DNA from: Escherichia coli
GTDB taxonomy: Bacteria > Pseudomonadota > Gammaproteobacteria > Enterobacterales > Enterobacteriaceae
Assembly (NCBI RefSeq): GCF_003334765.1
Contig: NZ_QOWT01000055.1
Reading direction: 5' to 3' (one strand)
Length of the DNA stretch: 13,955 nt
Both the position numbers and the translations under genes were made by a program. Each line of letters begins with the position of its first letter. The first letter of the stretch is position 1. Under the pieces are notes generated by a model. The model was not told the origin of the DNA and made no database searches. It was given only the letters and a program-made list of their open reading frames with translations. Below, piece by piece: positions 1-7,340 of this stretch.

Positions 1-453
1 CACCGGGGACATCAGCAGGTGCTGTTTGTGGTGACGCAGGCCGACAAAACGGAGCCCTGCCATGAATGGGATATGGCAGGTATTCAGCCTTCTCCCGCAC
101 AGGAACAGAACATTCGTGAGAAAACAGATGCGGTATTCCGGCTGTTCCGGCCCGTACATCCGGTTGTGGCCGTATCGGCCCGCACCGGCTGGGAACTGGA
201 TACGCTGGTCAGTGCGCTCATGACAGCACTTCCCGACCATGCCGCCAGTCCCCTGATGACCCGCCTGCAGGACGAGCTGCGCACGGAGTCTGTCCGGTCT
301 CAGGCCCGTGAACAGTTTACCGGTGCGGTGGACCGGATATTTGACACGGCGGAGAGCGTCTGCATTGCCTCTGTTGCACGCACGGTTCTGCGCGCCGTCC
401 GTGACTCGGTGGTCTCTGTTGCCCGCGCGGTATGGAACTGGATTTTCTTCTGA
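1..453 (+). CDS. GTPase of the YeeP/YfjP/YkfA family (3' portion; 5' end upstream of window)
   Basis: Frame is open from base 1 (HRGHQQVLFVVTQADK...) to TGA at 451-453. Tail resembles from memory the C-terminal region of CP4-prophage GTP-binding proteins, and it sits directly upstream of a DUF932-type gene as yfjP does before yfjQ. Confidence 0.6.
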   Translation, partial: HRGHQQVLFVVTQADKTEPCHEWDMAGIQPSPAQEQNIREKTDAVFRLFRPVHPVVAVSARTGWELDTLVSALMTALPDHAASPLMTRLQDELRTESVRSQAREQFTGAVDRIFDTAESVCIASVARTVLRAVRDSVVSVARAVWNWIFF

Positions 454-540
454 ACCCGGTGGTGATGTACCAGGCTGTTGTTACAGATTTTTAACTCCAT
501 GAAAACACTATGCAAACGCAGCCATACCCGGGTTGTCCCC

Positions 541-569
541 TTGCGTTGTGTTTCTCAAGTTAATAGAAT
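541..569 (+). promoter_or_regulatory. Putative sigma70 promoter (-35 TTGCGT 541-546, 17-bp spacer, -10 TAGAAT 564-569)
   Basis: Hexamers and spacing read directly from the sequence; predicted transcript start around 576-578, about 95 nt upstream of the ATG at 671. Confidence 0.4.
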
Positions 570-572
570 ACA

Positions 573-613
573 TCGATCGTTACTATCATATCGATCGTTA
601 TAAACGATCGTTT
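573..613 (+). promoter_or_regulatory. Three GATC (Dam) sites inside a thrice-repeated CGATCGTT motif, at and just downstream of the predicted transcript start
   Basis: GATC at 575-578, 593-596 and 606-609, each within CGATCG; motif copies TCGATCGTTA (573-582), TCGATCGTTA (591-600), ACGATCGTTT (604-613). Confidence 0.55.
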
Positions 614-670
614 GTAGTAAATGACCTCCTCCGTGGTTGTCATGAAAATGCGTCTTAGGAAGGTTAAATA

Positions 671-3067
671 ATGCACGAAAAGAACATCGCCCTGCTTTGT
701 GATGAAGCCGACCGACTTTTGCAACTGAACATTAATCTGCTCCGGCAAATGGTTGAGGAGCCAGATGTGTTATCTGACAGTAAGAACGAAAACAGACTGC
801 TTTTTGATAAACAGAAAGCACTGAAAAGAATTGAGGAGCTGGAGGGCGAACAAATCAAAACCGCCCGCAGGGAGATGGTGCTGGCTGTTGTCGGCACGAT
901 GAAAGCAGGCAAATCAACCACCATCAATGCCATTGTGGGGCAGGAAATTCTGCCTAACCGTAACCGCCCCATGACCTCTGTACCGACGCTCATCCGCCAC
1001 GTTCCCGGAAAAACTGAGCCGGTTCTCCATCTGGAACATATTCAGCCTGTCCGCAATTTATTAATCACACTGCAGGAAAAACTCGCCACCCCGGCAGGAC
1101 AGCAGGTCGCACAGACCCTGCAGCAAACCGGGGATACCCGCGAACTGCTGGATATTCTGACGGATGATGGCTGGCTCAAAAATGAATACCACGGGGAGGA
1201 GGAAATCTTTACCGGACTGGCATCGTTAAACGATCTGGTTCGTCTTGCTGCGGCAATGGGGACTGAATTTCCTTTTGATGAATACGCAGAAGTGCAGAAA
1301 CTGCCGGTGATCGACGTGGAATTCAGCCATCTGGTGGGGATGGATGCATGCCAGGGAACACTCACACTGCTGGATACCCCCGGCCCTAATGAGGCCGGAC
1401 AACCGCAGATGGAAGTGATGATGCGGGATCAACTGCAGAAAGCCTCTGCGGTTCTGGCTGTGATGGATTACACCCAGATGAACTCAAAAGCGGATGAAGA
1501 CGTCCGTAAAGAGCTTAATGCCATTGCTGACGTATCAGCCGGCCGCCTGTTTGTACTGGTCAATAAATTTGATGAGAAAGACCGCAATGGCGATGGGGCA
1601 GATGCCGTACGCCAGAAAGTTCCGGCAATGCTGAACAGCGATGTGCTGCCCGCCTCCCGCGTTTATCCCGGATCCTCACGCCAGGCATACCTGGCTAACC
1701 GTGCGCTTCATGAGTTACGGAAAAACGGAACCCTTCCTGTTGATGAAGCCTGGGTCGATGATTTTATCAGAGGTGCCTTCGGTTGCATGAAAAAAGAATA
1801 CGTCTGTAAAGACAGTGAACTGGCAACTGAAGGGGCGACAGACCTGTGGGAAGGCTCACTTATCGATCAACTGATAACGGAAGTCATACAGAGCTCACAT
1901 TCCAGAGCTGCGGCACTGGCGGTTGACTCTGCCGCCGCAAAACTGATGCAGAATGCAGAAAATATCAGTGAATACCTGTTGTTACGCCATCAGGGGCTAC
2001 AGCAAAGCATTCAGTCACTGCAGTCGCATATCACCAGCCTGCTTGCGGATATCCGGGAAATCGCGGACTGTCAGGAGCAGATGACCACTGATGTCAGAAT
2101 GGCCATGGAGGAGATCGATACTAAAACCCGGGAATTACTGACGGGGGTCTGCACCTCACTGGAAGAGGAGCTGAATGACTATTTCAGAAGCGGTAAACGC
2201 AAAGAACAGCAAATGCTGGAGGAAGAAGACGCAGAACAACGAAGGTCTCAGTCCGGATTATGGGGGAAAATTTCTCAATGGTCCGGTATCAACAACCAGG
2301 GCCGGGAGGATTACAGGAAACGAGATTTTGCCCCGGACAGCCCCGAAATAAAATTCAGTGATCGCAGGGAAGCCCTTGAACTGATGACGCAAATCGAATC
2401 GACCGTGACCAGCCTGCACCGTGAGGCTGAAGCACAGTTCCGGCCTGAGCTGGAGAAAATCGTCAGCGGGATTGAAACAGGTTTTCGTGGCACGGCCCTG
2501 TACGCCACAGAAAACATTGCCGGTCGCATCAATGCCCGCCTGGAGGATGAGGGCTTTACCGTAAAAATCAGTTTTCCGGCAGTCAGCCAGTTACAGACCC
2601 GGCTCGCGGTAAAAATAAATCTGAGTGCGCTTATGGAGGAAAGAACGGAGACCGTCACCCGTCGCCGTCGGCAGAGTGGCGTATGGGGAACCGTTTGTCG
2701 ATGGTTTGGCACCAGTGACCTGGGCTGGGAAAACTATGACGAGGATGTGAGTCGCAGCGTGATCAATATCAACAAGGTCAGAGAGGAAGTTATGTCACTG
2801 ACCCGGGCATATTTCGGGGAGCTGCAGGCATCCATTGAGCAGGATATTAACCAGCCCGTCCGCCAGGAAATCGATGCCTTTTTCTGCGCATTCAGGGAGA
2901 AAGTTGAACAACTGCGTAACACGCTGATTCAGAGCTCTGAGGATCATAAACGCGATCAGCAGGCGCAGGAACGACTTACCGGGCGACTTCAGGCATTAAA
3001 TGAAAGGGTTCCTGAGCTCATTACTGACAGTAAGGCGCTGAGGGAAGAGCTGGAGACAATGCTGTGA
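671..3067 (+). CDS. Dynamin-like large GTPase, CrfC/YjdA-like paralog (798 aa)
   Basis: RBS AGGAAGG about 8 nt before ATG 671. P-loop GTMKAGKST encoded at 893-919, DTPG at 1373-1384, NKFD at 1562-1573, followed by a ~500-aa largely helical region. Collinear from memory with CrfC (…GTMKAGKSTTINAIVG…LPNRNRPMT…LTLLDTPGPNEAGQP…VLVNKFD…). Confidence 0.85.
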   Translation: MHEKNIALLCDEADRLLQLNINLLRQMVEEPDVLSDSKNENRLLFDKQKALKRIEELEGEQIKTARREMVLAVVGTMKAGKSTTINAIVGQEILPNRNRPMTSVPTLIRHVPGKTEPVLHLEHIQPVRNLLITLQEKLATPAGQQVAQTLQQTGDTRELLDILTDDGWLKNEYHGEEEIFTGLASLNDLVRLAAAMGTEFPFDEYAEVQKLPVIDVEFSHLVGMDACQGTLTLLDTPGPNEAGQPQMEVMMRDQLQKASAVLAVMDYTQMNSKADEDVRKELNAIADVSAGRLFVLVNKFDEKDRNGDGADAVRQKVPAMLNSDVLPASRVYPGSSRQAYLANRALHELRKNGTLPVDEAWVDDFIRGAFGCMKKEYVCKDSELATEGATDLWEGSLIDQLITEVIQSSHSRAAALAVDSAAAKLMQNAENISEYLLLRHQGLQQSIQSLQSHITSLLADIREIADCQEQMTTDVRMAMEEIDTKTRELLTGVCTSLEEELNDYFRSGKRKEQQMLEEEDAEQRRSQSGLWGKISQWSGINNQGREDYRKRDFAPDSPEIKFSDRREALELMTQIESTVTSLHREAEAQFRPELEKIVSGIETGFRGTALYATENIAGRINARLEDEGFTVKISFPAVSQLQTRLAVKINLSALMEERTETVTRRRRQSGVWGTVCRWFGTSDLGWENYDEDVSRSVININKVREEVMSLTRAYFGELQASIEQDINQPVRQEIDAFFCAFREKVEQLRNTLIQSSEDHKRDQQAQERLTGRLQALNERVPELITDSKALREELETML

Positions 3068-4467
3068 CTTCACCATTTATTCAACAAATTGCTGATAACC
3101 GGGTATGTCAGGTACTCACCTGTCTTCCTGAAAAATTTGTGGTTGATTTCGCAAACGGAATCGATGTTGCACAGGAGCATATCCGCACGGCCGGAGAGCG
3201 CACGTTCTTCCGGCGTTTAAAAGAGGGGCTGACCGGCGAAGGCGCTGCACGGCAGAATGCCATCAATGCGTCGCTTGCACAGGGCGTTGAGGCGTCCCTG
3301 CGCTGGCTGACGGAGATGACAACGTCACTTGCCACCACAAACTACGCGATTACCCAGGTAAACGACAGGGTCAGTTCACTGGTCAGTGATACAGCCAGGC
3401 TGGCGCATTATTCCGCAGATACGCGGGAGCAGTTACTCACCCTGGCCGATCAGGTTCACCATAAACTGAATCATCTTGAAGAAAAACTCCACCGTGTTGA
3501 CCAGGTTCAGCGGGCGCAGTTACATCTTGAGCAGATATTCTCATGGTGGAGCGCCGGGCGATATGCGTCATTTTCCCCTGCCGGACGTTGTTATGTGGCA
3601 CTTGAAGAGCTTCGCTGGGGCGCGTTTGGTGATGTGATACGTCAGGGCGAAACAGGCCAGGTTAACCAGCTACTGGATATTCTCAGACATAAAGCATTAA
3701 CGCAGATGGCACAGGAGAGTGGCGGTAGTGCAACCGTGCGTCTGAACACTCTGGACTGGCTTGGTGGTCAGGGCCGGGAGCAGGCAGATAACGAGTGGCA
3801 TGACGCGATTAACTGGCTGGGAGACTGGTGCAGTGAAGAGCAGCATCCGGTGACCCGTGTGCGCGACCCGGGCCGCCGGGGATACACAAAACACATGCTG
3901 CGTCTGCGGCGGGCCGGAGAGATAAACGGAGAACATGTCCCTGAAATTATTCTGCTCAACTCTCATGACGGTACCTCCAGCTACCAGATGCTGCCGGGTT
4001 ACTTCAGGTTCGTCTGCCAGAACGGGTGCGTCTGTGGCCAGTCTCTGGGGGAAGTGCGTGTTCCACACCGGGGAAATGTAGTGGAGAAAGTTATCGAAGG
4101 GGCTTACGAGGTGGTGGGCGTGTTTGACCGGATAGAGGAGAAGCGTGATGCCATGCAGTCGCTGGTCCTGCCGCCACCGGCACGCCAGGCGCTGGCACAG
4201 GCGGCACTGACTTACCGTTATGGTGACGAACATCAGCCCGTCACCACCGCCGACATTCTGACGCCGCGACGCCGGGAGGATTACGGTAAGGACCTGTGGA
4301 GCGCATATCAGACCATCCAGGAGAATATGCTGAAAGGCGGGATTTCCGGTCGCAGTGCAAAAGGAAAACGTATCCATACCCGGGCCATTCACAGCATTGA
4401 TACCGACATTAAGCTCAATCGCGCATTGTGGGTGATGGCAGAAACGATGCTGGAGAGCCTGCGCTGA
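3064..4467 (+). CDS. Partner protein, apparently chimeric: N-terminal ~260 aa of unplaced helical domain fused to a DUF932/UPF0380 (YfjQ/YafZ-like) C-terminal ~200 aa
   Basis: GTG start at 3064 overlaps the upstream TGA (GTGA, 3064-3067). C-terminal segment (…TRVRDPGRRGYTKHMLRLRRAGEI…EIILLNSHDGTSSYQMLPGYFRFVCQNG…KLNRALWVMAETMLESLR) matches my memory of YfjQ-family proteins minus their first ~70 residues. Confidence 0.7.
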   Translation: MTSPFIQQIADNRVCQVLTCLPEKFVVDFANGIDVAQEHIRTAGERTFFRRLKEGLTGEGAARQNAINASLAQGVEASLRWLTEMTTSLATTNYAITQVNDRVSSLVSDTARLAHYSADTREQLLTLADQVHHKLNHLEEKLHRVDQVQRAQLHLEQIFSWWSAGRYASFSPAGRCYVALEELRWGAFGDVIRQGETGQVNQLLDILRHKALTQMAQESGGSATVRLNTLDWLGGQGREQADNEWHDAINWLGDWCSEEQHPVTRVRDPGRRGYTKHMLRLRRAGEINGEHVPEIILLNSHDGTSSYQMLPGYFRFVCQNGCVCGQSLGEVRVPHRGNVVEKVIEGAYEVVGVFDRIEEKRDAMQSLVLPPPARQALAQAALTYRYGDEHQPVTTADILTPRRREDYGKDLWSAYQTIQENMLKGGISGRSAKGKRIHTRAIHSIDTDIKLNRALWVMAETMLESLR

Positions 4468-4548
4468 TGCCGTTTCCCTGAGTGAGGGAATCATTCAGCT
4501 TTCGTTCCTGAAAAACACACATTTATTTGTTATTTAAGGAGTTATCTC

Positions 4549-5028
4549 ATGAAAACCGTTTCTCAGAATACCCCCACAATTTATTCAGCTACAACACCAG
4601 AGAATAATCCGCCTCAGTTGGTTGCCAGCCTCGTCCCTGATGAACAGCGCATCAGCTTCTGGCCGCAGCATTTTGGCCTCATTCCACAGTGGGTGACCCT
4701 GGAGCCCCGTGTCTTCGGCTGGATGGACCGTCTGTGCGAAGACTACTGCGGTGGTATCTGGAATCTGTACACCCTGAACAACGGCGGGGCATTTATGGCA
4801 CCCGAACCGGATGACGATGATGGCGAAAACTGGGTACTGTTCAATGCCATGAACGGTAACCGCGCTGAAATGAGCCCGGAAGCCGCCGGCATTGCCGCCT
4901 GTCTGATGACGTACAGTCATCATGCCTGTCGTACGGAGTGTTATGCCATGACGGTCCATTATTACCGGCTGCGGGATTACGCCCTGCAGCATCCGGAATG
5001 CAGCGCCATTATGCGCATCATCGACTGA
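4549..5028 (+). CDS. Antirestriction protein, ArdB/KlcA family (YfjX/YafX-like), 159 aa
   Basis: RBS AAGGAG 7 nt before ATG. Acidic DDDDGE stretch and cysteine/histidine-rich C-terminus as I recall for this family; position before the RadC-like gene is as in CP4 islands. Confidence 0.75.
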   Translation: MKTVSQNTPTIYSATTPENNPPQLVASLVPDEQRISFWPQHFGLIPQWVTLEPRVFGWMDRLCEDYCGGIWNLYTLNNGGAFMAPEPDDDDGENWVLFNAMNGNRAEMSPEAAGIAACLMTYSHHACRTECYAMTVHYYRLRDYALQHPECSAIMRIID

Positions 5029-5043
5029 ATGGAGGCAGGGACA

Positions 5044-5520
5044 ATGCAACAACTTTCCTTTCTGCCCGGAGAGATGACGCCCGGCGAGCGCAGCCTCATT
5101 CAACGGGCCCTGAAAACCCTGGACCGCCATCTTCATGAACCCGGCGTGGCCTTCACCTCCACCCGTGCAGCACGGGAATGGCTGATTCTGAACATGGCGG
5201 GACTGGAGCGTGAAGAATTCCGGGTGCTGTATCTGAATAACCAGAATCAACTGATTGCCGGTGAAACCCTCTTTACCGGCACCATCAACCGCACGGAAGT
5301 CCATCCCCGGGAAGTGATTAAACGCGCCCTGTACCACAATGCCGCTGCCGTGGTACTGGCACACAATCACCCGTCCGGTGAAGTCACACCCAGTAAGGCA
5401 GACCGGCTTATCACCGAACGTCTGGTACAGGCACTGGGCCTGGTGGATATCCGGGTGCCGGACCATCTGATAGTCGGTGGCAACCAGGTTTTCTCCTTTG
5501 CCGAACATGGTCTGCTTTAA
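5044..5520 (+). CDS. yeeS: RadC-like JAB/MPN-domain protein (UPF0758; YeeS/YkfG/YfjY family)
   Basis: JAMM-type motif HNHPSG present. ATG at 5044 is preferred over the in-frame ATG at 5029 because GGAGG precedes it and it gives a 158-aa product typical of the family. Confidence 0.8.
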   Translation: MQQLSFLPGEMTPGERSLIQRALKTLDRHLHEPGVAFTSTRAAREWLILNMAGLEREEFRVLYLNNQNQLIAGETLFTGTINRTEVHPREVIKRALYHNAAAVVLAHNHPSGEVTPSKADRLITERLVQALGLVDIRVPDHLIVGGNQVFSFAEHGLL

Positions 5521-5582
5521 CCCGTCACAACCACATCACACCTGTTTTCACTTTTATCTTCTGTCTTCAGAGGTATCCCATT

Positions 5583-5804
5583 ATGAAAATTATCACCCGT
5601 GGTGAAGCCATGCGTATTCACCAACAACATCCGACATCCCGTCTTTTTCCGTTCTGTACCGGTAAATACCGCTGGCACGGCAGTGCTGAAGCGTATACCG
5701 GTCGTGAAGTGCAGGATATTCCCGGTGTGCTGGCCGTGTTTGCTGAACGCCGTAAGGACAGTTTTGGTCCGTATGTCCGGCTGATGAGCGTCACCCTGAA
5801 CTGA
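5583..5804 (+). CDS. yeeT: YeeT/YkfF-family small protein (DUF905), 73 aa
   Basis: Size, sequence (MKIITRGEAMRIHQQHPTSRLFPFCTGKYRWHG…) and position between the RadC-like and antitoxin genes. Confidence 0.75.
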   Translation: MKIITRGEAMRIHQQHPTSRLFPFCTGKYRWHGSAEAYTGREVQDIPGVLAVFAERRKDSFGPYVRLMSVTLN

Positions 5805-5877
5805 GTGGGAATTCTGATGAGCAGAATTATCGCCACTACCGGACCATTCTTAGCCGATTTTCTGTAAGGATTTTATC

Positions 5878-6246
5878 GTGTCAGACACACTCCCCGGGAC
5901 AACACTTCCCGACGACAATCACGACCGCCCCTGGTGGGGGCTGCCCTGCACCGTGACGCCCTGTTTCGGGGCACGTCTGGTGCAGGAGGGTAACCGGTTG
6001 CATTACCTTGCCGACCGCGCCGGTATCAGAGGCCTGTTCAGCGATGCAGATGCGTACCACCTGGACCAGGCCTTTCCGCTGCTGATGAAACAACTGGAAC
6101 TCGTGCTCACCAGCGGTGAACTGAATCCCCGCCATCAGCATACCGTCACGCTGTATGCAAAAGGGCTGACCTGCAAAGCCGATACCCTCAGCAGTTGTGG
6201 TTACGTTTATCTGGCTGTTTATCCGACGCCCGAAATGAAAAATTAA
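5878..6246 (+). CDS. cbeA: Type IV antitoxin CbeA (YeeU), 122 aa, GTG start
   Basis: Translation (MSDTLPGTTLPDDNHDRPWWGLPCTVTPCFGARLVQEGNRLHYLADRAGIRGLF…) is near-identical to YeeU as I recall it; AAGGA 7 nt before GTG 5878. Confidence 0.85.
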   Translation: MSDTLPGTTLPDDNHDRPWWGLPCTVTPCFGARLVQEGNRLHYLADRAGIRGLFSDADAYHLDQAFPLLMKQLELVLTSGELNPRHQHTVTLYAKGLTCKADTLSSCGYVYLAVYPTPEMKN

Positions 6247-6334
6247 CTCTCCAGAATAGCCTTCTGCTACGGCCTGGTGTTTTCACCACGCCACTTTTCC
6301 ATTTTTATATCTGCATATCAGGAAAATCTTCAGT

Positions 6335-6709
6335 ATGAAAACATTACCTGTATTACCCGGGCAGGCGACCAGTTCTCGCCCGTCTCCTGTTGAAATCTGG
6401 CAGATACTGCTGTCCCGACTGCTGGACCAGCACTATGGCCTCACACTGAATGACACACCTTTTGCCGATGAACGTGTGATTGAGCAGCATATTGAGGCAG
6501 GCATTTCACTGTGTGATGCGGTGAACTTTCTCGTGGAAAAATACGCGCTGGTGCGTACCGACCAGCCGGGATTCAGCGCCTGTACCCGCTCTCAGTTAAT
6601 AAACAGCATCGATATCCTCCGGGCTCGCAGGGCGACCGGCCTGATGACCCGCGACAATTACAGAACGGTAAATAACATTACCCTGGGTAAGTATCCGGAG
6701 GCGAAATGA
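6335..6709 (+). CDS. cbtA: Type IV toxin CbtA (YeeV), 124 aa
   Basis: Translation (MKTLPVLPGQATSSRPSPVEIWQILLSRLLDQHYGLTLNDTPFADERV…) matches the CbtA/YkfI/YpjF family; it lies directly downstream of the antitoxin. Confidence 0.85.
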   Translation: MKTLPVLPGQATSSRPSPVEIWQILLSRLLDQHYGLTLNDTPFADERVIEQHIEAGISLCDAVNFLVEKYALVRTDQPGFSACTRSQLINSIDILRARRATGLMTRDNYRTVNNITLGKYPEAK

Positions 6710-6900
6710 TGACACTGGAAGCCGACAGCGTTAACGTACAGGCGCTGGATATGGGGCACATTGTCGTTGACATTGATGGTGTTAATATCACTGAACTGAT
6801 TAATAAGGCCGCTGAAAAAGGTTATTCACTCCGCGTGGTGGATGACCGTGACTCTACCGAAACACCGGCAACTTATGCCAGCCCTCACCAGTTGCTGTAA
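6706..6900 (+). CDS. yeeW: YeeW-like small protein, 64 aa
   Basis: ATGA start/stop overlap with cbtA at 6706-6709; conserved position after the toxin in CP4-44-type islands. Confidence 0.65.
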   Translation: MMTLEADSVNVQALDMGHIVVDIDGVNITELINKAAEKGYSLRVVDDRDSTETPATYASPHQLL

Positions 6901-6912
6901 GACAATGCAGTG

Positions 6913-7026
6913 ATGCAGGGTATAGTGCCATTAACCACAGAAACAGCACTGTTGTCCTGTATTAAGCAGGCAAGAGAAGATGTCCTTACCCTGCGCCATC
7001 TGCAGCTTCTGCACCAGAACCGGTGA
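6913..7026 (+). CDS. Possible small ORF (37 aa; MQGIVPLTTETALLSCIKQAREDVLTLRHLQLLHQNR)
   Basis: Open frame between yeeW and the terminator at 7056. No convincing Shine-Dalgarno. Low confidence. Confidence 0.2.
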   Translation: MQGIVPLTTETALLSCIKQAREDVLTLRHLQLLHQNR

Positions 7027-7055
7027 ATCTCACTCAACAGGCTTCATTTCCCCTG

Positions 7056-7090
7056 ACGCCAGCCTGAATACAGCTGGCGTTTTCATTTAT
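7056..7090 (+). terminator. Rho-independent terminator ending the island operon
   Basis: Perfect 8-bp stem ACGCCAGC (7056-7063) / GCTGGCGT (7073-7080) with a 9-nt loop, followed by TTTCATTTAT. Confidence 0.6.
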
Positions 7091-7184
7091 AAACAGAAAG
7101 GAAAACCGATAATAATGGAATGGACGCCCCGACCATGAAGCAACGGTAGGATATTACTGATAAACCTTCCAGTGGAGGTGCGTT

Positions 7185-7265
7185 ATGGCCGTTTTAACGA
7201 TTAGCATTGACCTGACAAAAAATGAATTCCAAATCCACGGTCTGGGTAGGAACAGAAAAATCTAA
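7185..7265 (+). pseudogene. Remnant resembling the N-terminus of an IS110-family transposase (26 codons then stop)
   Basis: MAVLTISIDLTKNEFQIHGLGRNRKI* resembles the IDL(A/T)K..F.(V/I)HG N-terminal signature of IS110-family transposases; preceded by GGAGG. Confidence 0.35.
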
Positions 7266-7340
7266 GCTCAGAAAACGGATTAAAGTAAGCGTCAACGGAG
7301 CACCGTATTGACGCTTATTTATTGGTGAGAACTACGTTCC

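Follow-up and report, generated by a model that had tools for sequence, protein, structure and literature searches.

The stretch of Escherichia coli DNA analysed here (13,955 nucleotides, called the window below) carries a CP4-44-type island that adjoins yeeA-sbmC-dacD. Within it lies an open reading frame (ORF) that joins parts of two otherwise separate genes, with a dynamin gene as its upstream operon partner. The features concerned are the following, where L003 stands for TC_EC10, the parent with which the window is compared throughout:

671..3067, plus strand: intact island gene for a dynamin-family GTPase (798 aa) that is paralogous to K-12 RdcA/CrfC/YjdA
3064..4467, plus strand: chimeric ORF of 467 aa, RdcB-like residues 1-263 followed in frame by DUF932 residues 70-273
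3064..3852, plus strand: island rdcB(yjcZ)-like gene up to codon 263, the native start and the translational coupling to the dynamin gene being kept
3852..3853, no strand: deletion junction, with a 2-nt microhomology (GA) at both ends of the missing segment (L003 3852-3853 and 6708-6709)
3853..4467, plus strand: 3′ 204 codons and stop of the island DUF932 (yfjQ/yafZ-like) gene, codons 1-69 being gone
4549..6900, plus strand: antirestriction, RadC/JAB (yeeS), DUF987 (yeeT), cbeA, cbtA and yeeW, the usual downstream genes of the island (from the ORFs and the L003 annotation)

The dynamin gene does not differ from that of the parent at a single nucleotide. Its product is 33% identical to K-12 RdcA over 744 aa (E 9e-121) and matches the NCBIfam model NF007368 (CrfC) with an E value of 1.2e-166, but with 556 bits, well below the cut-off of 1146. 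The chimeric ORF begins with a GTG that shares a 4-nt GTGA overlap with the stop of the dynamin gene, and a GGAG lies 9 nt 5′ of this start. Two Pfam families follow one another in its single frame: YjcZ (PF13990) at residues 26-267, with an E value of 1.6e-56 and positions 1-243 of the 272 in the model, and DUF932 (PF06067) at residues 263-456, with an E value of 6.7e-41 and positions 35-227 of 227. Judged from these profile scores, both matches far exceed chance. In BLASTP the C-terminal part (residues 264-466) aligns with residues 70-272 of both K-12 YfjQ (73% identity, E 7e-115) and K-12 YafZ (74%, E 2e-109), and in PHROGs it covers phrog_12094 at profile positions 69-277 of 281 only. K-12 RdcB/YjcZ aligns from its residue 11 to 290 with ORF residues 16-299 (27% identity, E 7e-26), where the part beyond ORF residue 263 is a chance match to sequence derived from DUF932. 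The two parents meet in the product at the peptide ...EEQHPVTRVRDPGR..., and GenBank CAM3814923.1 is identical to the whole 467-aa protein. Apart from YjcZ and DUF932, searches of the fusion against PADLOC, NCBIfam and PHROGs yielded no functional assignment.

Much of this had been anticipated by a first-pass annotation made from the sequence. It took the ORF for a chimera, which agrees both with the two families in one frame and with the separate parents in collinear genomes; and its assignment of some 200 C-terminal residues to the YfjQ/YafZ (DUF932) family, with about 70 N-terminal family residues missing and replaced by about 260 residues of helical sequence, comes very close to the 204, 69 and 263 found here. 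The homology to DUF932, which it had wished to see verified by alignment, is real, and the alignments to YfjQ, YafZ and YjcZ place the breakpoint it had predicted near nt ~3850 at 3852/3853. One of its two guesses on the N-terminal part, that of a YjcZ-like dynamin partner, is borne out by the YjcZ profile and by the similarity to K-12 RdcB.

The origin of the chimera is apparent from the closest complete genomes, which are collinear with the window at 99.8% identity and have 2,856 additional bases exactly at window 3852/3853. TC_EC10 matches the whole window in two blocks of 99.7-99.8% identity, where L003 1-3853 corresponds to window 1-3853 and L003 6708-16810 to window 3852-13955. In this parent both genes are intact and apart, and the window equals the parent minus one interval. 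The fused ORF has no nucleotide differences from the two parental genes (L003 3064-3852 and 6709-7323), nor does its product have any mismatch to RdcB-like residues 1-263 and DUF932 residues 70-273 when the proteins are aligned. The missing segment holds, in the order of listing and by the L003 annotation:

the last 38 codons of the 301-codon rdcB-like parent gene
the whole gene of a patatin-like phospholipase
two small hypothetical genes
two terminator-like hairpins (L003 5056-5072 and 6423-6452)
DUF932 codons 1-69

No longer repeat or hairpin spans the two ends of the deletion beyond the 2-nt GA. Nor does blastn find a copy of the missing segment (including the rdcB 3′ end and the patatin gene) elsewhere in the window, whilst tblastn with DUF932 residues 1-69 returns chance-level matches only. 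The genes at 4549..6900 now lie directly 3′ of the dynamin operon, without the terminator-like hairpins of the parent.

The junction is rare. A probe of 240 nt centred on the junction, with a threshold of at least 80% coverage, is found in none of 5,426 complete E. coli genomes, whilst its two halves are each present separately in thousands of them. Of these genomes, 1,816 (about one third) cover at least 80% of the deleted segment at a single place, and among the matches listed there are genomes where the segment lies upstream of a full-length DUF932 gene. In JGI metagenomes, a 30-mer over the junction occurs in no contig as against 26 contigs for the 30-mer of the intact parental control; a scan of IMG/VR likewise gave no match to the junction, but there the intact control gave none either. 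Among about 15 billion proteins, the exact fusion protein appears on one contig, in the draft assembly GCA_965137835.1. The junction is nevertheless present in two records that are not identical, namely the window and a second record (L004), which ends earlier and differs from the window at 31 positions clustered in paralogue-rich stretches. For window 4800-5550, the matches in complete genomes do not exceed 98.7%.

Both partners lost conserved parts. In an alignment of 16 members of the RdcB family, the missing C-terminus holds 12 of the 41 invariant columns; in the numbering of the island RdcB-like protein these are W265, S266, T268, M278, P279, R280, S283, A284, R286, M291, E294 and F296. 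The RdcB part stops at residue 263, and the conserved C-terminal block of a complete RdcB is therefore absent. For the intact RdcB-like protein, AlphaFold2 gave a poor model (pLDDT 64.7), and for this reason the structural role of its lost C-terminus is judged by conservation alone. The AlphaFold2 model for the intact DUF932 protein is good (pLDDT 93.3, pTM 0.89), and places a helix (50-59) and a strand (62-69), both adjoining central sheet strands of the predicted fold, in the deleted part. The invariant P30 and the nearly invariant Y45, T50, G61, F62 and Q69 were deleted too. A complete DUF932 domain runs from about residue 1-20 to about 270, and the one in the chimera is without residues 1-69. 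Fold searches with the good model of DUF932 gave no convincing solved structural relative, and a sequence search of the PDB gave nothing significant for either DUF932 or RdcB.

Taken together, these observations show that the ORF at 3064-4467 arose by a single 2,856-bp deletion in a CP4-44-type island; most likely it is a pseudogene-like scar, and to this reading we would assign a probability of close to nine in ten (about 0.88). The deletion with its endpoints and its rarity, as well as the loss of conserved elements, follow directly from the comparisons above, whilst expression and loss of function are inferred. The ancestral order was GTPase, dynamin, rdcB-like, patatin-like phospholipase, two hypothetical genes, DUF932, antirestriction, radC and further genes. 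Illegitimate recombination between two sites sharing only the GA then excised the 2,856 bp, taking with them rdcB-like codons 264-301, the patatin gene, both hypothetical genes, the terminator-like hairpins and DUF932 codons 1-69. The remnants read as one 467-aa ORF because the two genes are co-phased and the length of the deletion is divisible by three. The fused ORF is probably still translated, since the ribosome-binding site of the rdcB-like gene and the GTGA overlap were kept; its product, however, is probably non-functional or unstable, since the losses include the most conserved RdcB block as well as a helix and a strand of DUF932. What we see is an ordinary mutation within a single E. 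coli lineage rather than a new protein family. It resembles other deletion-generated in-frame fusions and pseudogenes of decaying prophage-like islands in having an intact collinear parent, a rare lineage-restricted junction, minimal microhomology and partners that both lost conserved parts, and has no trait to distinguish it from them beyond the retention of the frame, a one-in-three chance.

The first-pass annotation had thought of a local fusion, and was right in so far as the event is local: no full-length homolog with the same architecture and junction was found among the cluster representatives of the protein collection, nor was the junction found in the complete E. coli genomes. The insertion it had named first as a possible origin is replaced by a deletion. 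In that scenario the dynamin gene and the N-terminal domain entered the yfjQ-like gene of the island as a cassette, for which a 5′-truncated DUF932 directly 3′ of foreign sequence would indeed speak. Yet collinear genomes of 99.8% identity keep the full order, and the window is that order minus 2,856 bp; the missing segment, in which a full-length rdcB-like gene has its 3′ end, is present (at least 80% covered) in the 1,816 genomes mentioned above; and the displaced 5′ part of DUF932, to be expected beyond the inserted DNA, lies neither upstream of the dynamin gene nor anywhere else in the window. An insertion is thus refuted. The same can be said, to the depth searched, of the other guess of the first-pass annotation, a YjcZ-like partner naturally fused to DUF932 in a bona fide two-domain family. 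The presence of both Pfam domains in one ORF agrees with it, and so does the fact that two other proteins (P0002 and P0013) carry YjcZ and DUF932 as well. Their breakpoints, however, differ from that of the ORF discussed here; they form clusters of one or two members, each read on a single contig, and they map to other microhomology-flanked deletions in the same kind of parental island. Besides the absence of the junction from all 5,426 genomes, the cluster representatives of a collection of 5.8 billion protein clusters yielded, to the depth searched, no full-length protein sharing both the architecture and the junction. A natural family is consequently rejected to that depth.

An artefact of assembly or sequencing, in which the contig mis-joins the rdcB-like and DUF932 genes and the true genome has the segment intact, seems unlikely, although the junction is known only from draft-type records, and the 31 clustered differences and the unmatched stretch at 4800-5550 suggest that paralogous islands blur the assemblies, or recombine, in this region. 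Against it stand the same junction in two non-identical records, flanks that are both collinear with one locus, and the lack of any copy of the deleted 2.9 kb elsewhere in the window. Moreover, a collapsed repeat or a mis-join in the assembly graph is not to be expected, since the ends share only 2 nt and no repeat spans them. It is rather less probable still that the deletion brought some benefit, be it that a stable chimera uses the RdcB-like helical region to tether three quarters of DUF932 to the island dynamin, or that the deletion is adaptive through loss of the patatin-like gene and placement of the antirestriction, radC and toxin-antitoxin (cbeA-cbtA) genes under the dynamin operon; the two variants together are very doubtful. 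In its favour, the frame was preserved together with the native start, the Shine-Dalgarno sequence and the coupling to the dynamin gene, the terminator-like hairpins between the two units are gone, and the binding of K-12 RdcB to RdcA is tight in a two-hybrid assay (PMC6510439). With its start intact, the in-frame product could in principle be stable and keep partial activity such as binding to the dynamin. On the other hand, the frame is kept by chance in one third of deletions between co-phased genes, about 15 billion proteins yielded the fusion on one contig only, it is without the most conserved RdcB block and part of the DUF932 fold, and neither the complete E. coli genomes nor the metagenome contigs suggest that the junction has spread or arisen again. 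If true, a functional chimera would amount to a domain swap carried out by nature, informative on two proteins of unknown mechanism.

The systems most similar to the parental genes are known from K-12. Its RdcB/YjcZ belongs to the same Pfam family as fusion residues 1-263, and its rdcA-rdcB pair has the same two-gene layout as the island dynamin and rdcB-like genes, with an overlap of 4 nt in both pairs (in K-12 by annotated coordinates). Besides binding its GTPase partner, RdcB is required for activation of the diguanylate cyclase DgcE, as established for the full-length K-12 proteins only (PMC6510439). The island protein, in contrast, is a paralogue borne by the island and only 27% identical to it, belongs to an operon that normally continues into a patatin-like phospholipase, and lacks in the fusion the last 38 residues; the link to DgcE is documented for K-12 only. 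The DUF932 part (PF06067; UPF0380) has its closest known counterparts in YfjQ and YafZ of the cryptic prophages CP4-57 and CP4-6, which are 73-74% identical to fusion residues 264-466 and share its position in the island, upstream of antirestriction, radC, DUF987 and toxin-antitoxin genes.

Eleos (formerly ‘Dynamins’, LeoA/LeoBC) is the best-known dynamin-based anti-phage defence module and, like the intact parental module, has accessory genes paired, on a mobile island, with a bacterial dynamin-like GTPase. The PADLOC model of LeoBC, however, matches the island dynamin only marginally (E 8.6e-05, 19.8 bits, no passing stretch), neither the RdcB-like protein nor the fusion is matched by the PADLOC models, and the patatin protein has only marginal matches to phospholipase effectors. 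No convincing PADLOC match was obtained for the parental module; judged by these models, it is not a member of Eleos/Dynamins. In the literature searched, no paper on this module came up, either under dynamin, patatin and YjcZ or under DUF932.

The fusion itself matters little. CP4-type E. coli islands decay via small microhomology-flanked deletions, one third of which yield plausible-looking ORFs of several domains, labelled ‘hypothetical protein’ by annotation pipelines. The ORF at 3064-4467 should accordingly be flagged as a fusion remnant, and not serve as seed for a new domain architecture. The more interesting object is the parental module that was destroyed, i.e., the island dynamin, its RdcB-like partner, the patatin-like phospholipase and the two small genes.

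Some minor observations concern other candidates. A match in Nissle 1917 apparently covering 100% of the ORF at 3064-4467 is not collinear with it: there a 5.9-kb tandem duplication puts DUF932 ahead of rdcB across its joint, and this was rejected as the same fusion. The top-scoring protein of the search (P0001, 471 aa) was also rejected as a YjcZ fusion, being a scrambled concatenate of DUF932 paralogues. The best 120 representatives listed are predominantly YjcZ-only proteins of ~300 aa and DUF932-only proteins of ~272 aa, the remainder being mostly singleton chimeras, and the best 150 DUF932 representatives are mostly of 260-300 aa and aligned from about residues 1-20. Many singleton DUF932 chimeras appear in the protein search, with Ag43-type, RadC, GTPase, antirestriction or DUF987 domains as partners.

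The chimeric reading frame is the scar of a lineage-restricted, in-frame deletion of 2,856 bp; an insertion and a natural fusion are both rejected as its cause. By Pfam, its product consists of two cleanly separated parts:

3064-4467, + strand, chimeric ORF of 467 codons, as called in the window
residues 26-267 of its protein, YjcZ (PF13990), E 1.6e-56, model positions 1-243 of 272
residues 263-456, DUF932 (PF06067), E 6.7e-41, model positions 35-227 of 227

In pairwise alignments, residues 264-466 match residues 70-272 of K-12 YfjQ (73% identity, E 7e-115) and of K-12 YafZ (74%, E 2e-109), both without gaps, and residues 16-299 match residues 11-290 of K-12 RdcB/YjcZ (27%, E 7e-26), where everything beyond residue 263 is DUF932-derived sequence matching by chance. 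The first-pass annotation had read here about 200 C-terminal DUF932 residues, the absence of the first ~70 residues of that family, ~260 helical residues ahead of the DUF932 part and a breakpoint expected near nt ~3850, all of which is borne out; the half it could not place, save as possibly YjcZ-like, is indeed of the YjcZ/RdcB family. The N-terminal half is a truncated RdcB/YjcZ-family paralogue and the C-terminal half a truncated YfjQ/YafZ-type DUF932.

A search with the whole window, of which at least 80% is covered in one place in 1,114 of 5,426 complete E. coli genomes, identifies a CP4-44-type island beside tmaR-yeeA-sbmC-dacD. The best matches are 99.8% identical and span 16,810 bp, against 13,955 in the window. 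One of them, the locus of genome TC_EC10 (L003, numbered from the window start), is annotated with the parental gene order:

L003, first in order, GTPase
L003 671-3067, dynamin family protein
L003 3064-3969, 'diguanylate cyclase regulator RdcB family protein', 301 aa
L003 3966-5036, patatin-like phospholipase
L003 5172-5855 and 5871-6281, two hypothetical proteins
L003 6502-7323, DUF932, 273 aa
L003, after DUF932 and in this order, antirestriction, RadC/YeeS, YeeT, CbeA, CbtA, YeeW

BLASTN aligns the two loci in two collinear blocks (window 1-3853 with L003 1-3853, window 3852-13955 with L003 6708-16810), so that the window is short of 2,856 bp, namely:

codons 264-301 of the rdcB-like gene
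the whole patatin-like gene and both hypothetical genes
L003 5056-5072 and L003 6423-6452 (13-bp stem, then a T-run), terminator-like hairpins
codons 1-69 of DUF932

Only the dinucleotide GA is common to both deletion ends, and a search for a longer direct or inverted repeat linking them found none. Since the rdcB-like and DUF932 genes are co-phased in L003 and 2,856 is divisible by three (3 x 952), what is left of them forms a single frame, RdcB-like residues 1-263 (...EEQHPV) running into DUF932 residues 70-273 (TRVRDPG...), with each half identical to its parental gene at every position. In the parental island the two hairpins stand between the dynamin/rdcB-like/patatin unit and the DUF932 unit; with their loss, the dynamin operon may now read into the downstream island genes.

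Of the earlier idea of a local fusion, the chimera itself and its YjcZ-like half thus stand, and both proposed origins fall. Had the dynamin gene and the N-terminal domain been inserted as a cassette into a yfjQ-like gene, displaced pieces of the deleted genes might be sought elsewhere in the window; none was found there, and the insertion is ruled out. A natural YjcZ-DUF932 family, for its part, is rejected because a search of a collection of 5.8 billion protein clusters yielded no representative that covers both halves at full length. The best 120 representatives listed are mostly YjcZ-only (~300 aa) or DUF932-only (~272 aa), and the best 150 for DUF932 are mostly 260-300 aa long, aligning from about residue 1-20. 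Two other proteins from this search do carry both Pfam domains, each read on one contig only, and their sequences and loci reveal deletions differing from the window's in the same kind of island:

P0002, 328 aa, two-member cluster, break from L003 3352 to 6613
P0013, 484 aa, single sequence also containing the dynamin N-terminus, breaks from L003 1376 to 3090 and from 3354 to 6828, the latter with 4-nt microhomology

There are in addition many singleton E. coli DUF932 chimeras with Ag43-type, RadC, GTPase/dynamin, antirestriction and DUF987 domains (P0028-P0113), which suggests that, in public assemblies at large, CP4-type islands have often undergone sporadic deletion or been mis-assembled. 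From the make-up of these hits, it follows that such islands shed DNA sporadically, the in-frame third appearing as 'fusion proteins'.

Independent rdcB-like::DUF932 fusions in two other assemblies (L006 5824-5827 and L007 6960-6963, both corresponding to L003 3352-3354) break within the rdcB-like gene no more than 2 nt apart (...GCGATTA/CC, codon 96/97) and rejoin at unlike DUF932 positions, L003 6613 and 6828; the near-shared breakpoint could mark a hotspot for deletions or have arisen by chance. In this assembly of E. coli Nissle 1917 (NZ_CP007799.1, locus L001 1204-12510), the block from rdcB-like to DUF932 forms a 5.9-kb tandem duplication whose joint holds part of the dynamin gene's 3' end, and this is what produces a misleading '100% coverage' match to the chimeric ORF.

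The junction is rare. With a 240-nt probe that has the junction at its centre, 0 of the 5,426 complete genomes reach 80% coverage, each half separately matching thousands of them, and 1,816 of the genomes cover 80% or more of the deleted segment at a single place. Among JGI metagenome contigs the 30-mer across the junction has no match, and its intact parental counterpart occurs in 26; in IMG/VR both are absent, which says nothing on rarity. An identical 467-aa protein has a single record (CAM3814923.1, 'hypothetical protein ESCO106035_23100'), encoded on one contig of 18.7 kb in the draft assembly GCA_965137835.1 (L004). At all positions compared among window, L003 and L004, the last equals L003 save for the deletion; the window shares its junction, runs past its contig end and differs from L003 and L004 alike at 31 clustered positions. 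The junction is thus common to at least two non-identical records, which, together with the 2-nt microhomology, argues at the sequence level against a mis-join in assembly.

As for the fused product, its reading frame starts with a GTG, nine bases after a GGAG and with a 4-base overlap (ATGCTGTGA) onto the stop of the 798-aa dynamin-family gene upstream; as these translation signals are unchanged, the ORF and the dynamin gene are probably translated together. The product, damaged in both halves, is most likely a remnant that is non-functional or unstable. The 38 lost RdcB residues hold 12 of the 41 columns invariant in a 16-sequence RdcB-family alignment including K-12 RdcB (W265, S266, T268, M278, P279, R280, S283, A284, R286, M291, E294, F296). 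An AlphaFold2 model of DUF932, built with 49 diverse homologues, is confident (pLDDT 93.3, pTM 0.89) and places in the lost part a strand (13-15) and two helices (22-33), all short, and further a helix (50-59) and a strand (62-69), directly after which the fusion point lies. This last strand immediately precedes the run 83-89, 97-105, 113-121 and 126-129, taken to form the central sheet, to which strand 62-69 would also belong. The deletion also takes out invariant P30 and nearly invariant Y45, T50, G61, F62 and Q69. The RdcB of K-12 binds RdcA, a dynamin-like GTPase, and the two are activators of the diguanylate cyclase DgcE (PMC6510439); the chimera could conceivably keep some residual docking onto the island dynamin. 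The AlphaFold2 model of the RdcB-like protein, all-helical at pLDDT 64.7, is too weak to be informative. In this decaying island the chimeric ORF is an ordinary scar of mutation; that it is a stable neo-protein, or that the operons were fused adaptively, is very improbable.

The intact parental module (L003 671-6281) comprises the dynamin, the RdcB-like protein, the patatin-like phospholipase and two small genes, of 227 aa (no match) and 136 aa (phrog_8968); window 671-3852 is its remainder. The dynamin is a paralogue of RdcA/CrfC at 33% identity, and its match to NCBIfam CrfC falls well under that model's cut-off. By PADLOC models the module is not a member of Eleos/LeoABC, nor has it any other convincing PADLOC match; dynamin, RdcB-like and patatin carry no PHROG or NCBIfam functional label as a module, and literature searches turned up no paper on it. 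From its gene content, it looks like an uncharacterised accessory system with the patatin, deleted here, as its likely effector.

Beyond dacD, in a stretch of 30-33% GC (12000-13955), the window has one further reading frame:

12550-13629, + strand, 359-aa ORF, no Pfam match at E <= 10 and no PADLOC match

The matching part of L003 is annotated with a hypothetical protein of shorter length and, after it, a gene for phage tail-fibre assembly. The 31 positions differing from L003 and L004 cluster at window 17-168, 4823-5524 and 6555, in the GTPase and antirestriction/radC genes, and no complete genome matches window 4800-5550 at more than 98.7%; paralogous CP4-type islands may have donated sequence by gene conversion, or paralogues may have been mixed during assembly. 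With the extra G at 6555, cbtA is full-length at 124 aa; in L003 it is frameshifted, and in L004 it has 87 aa.
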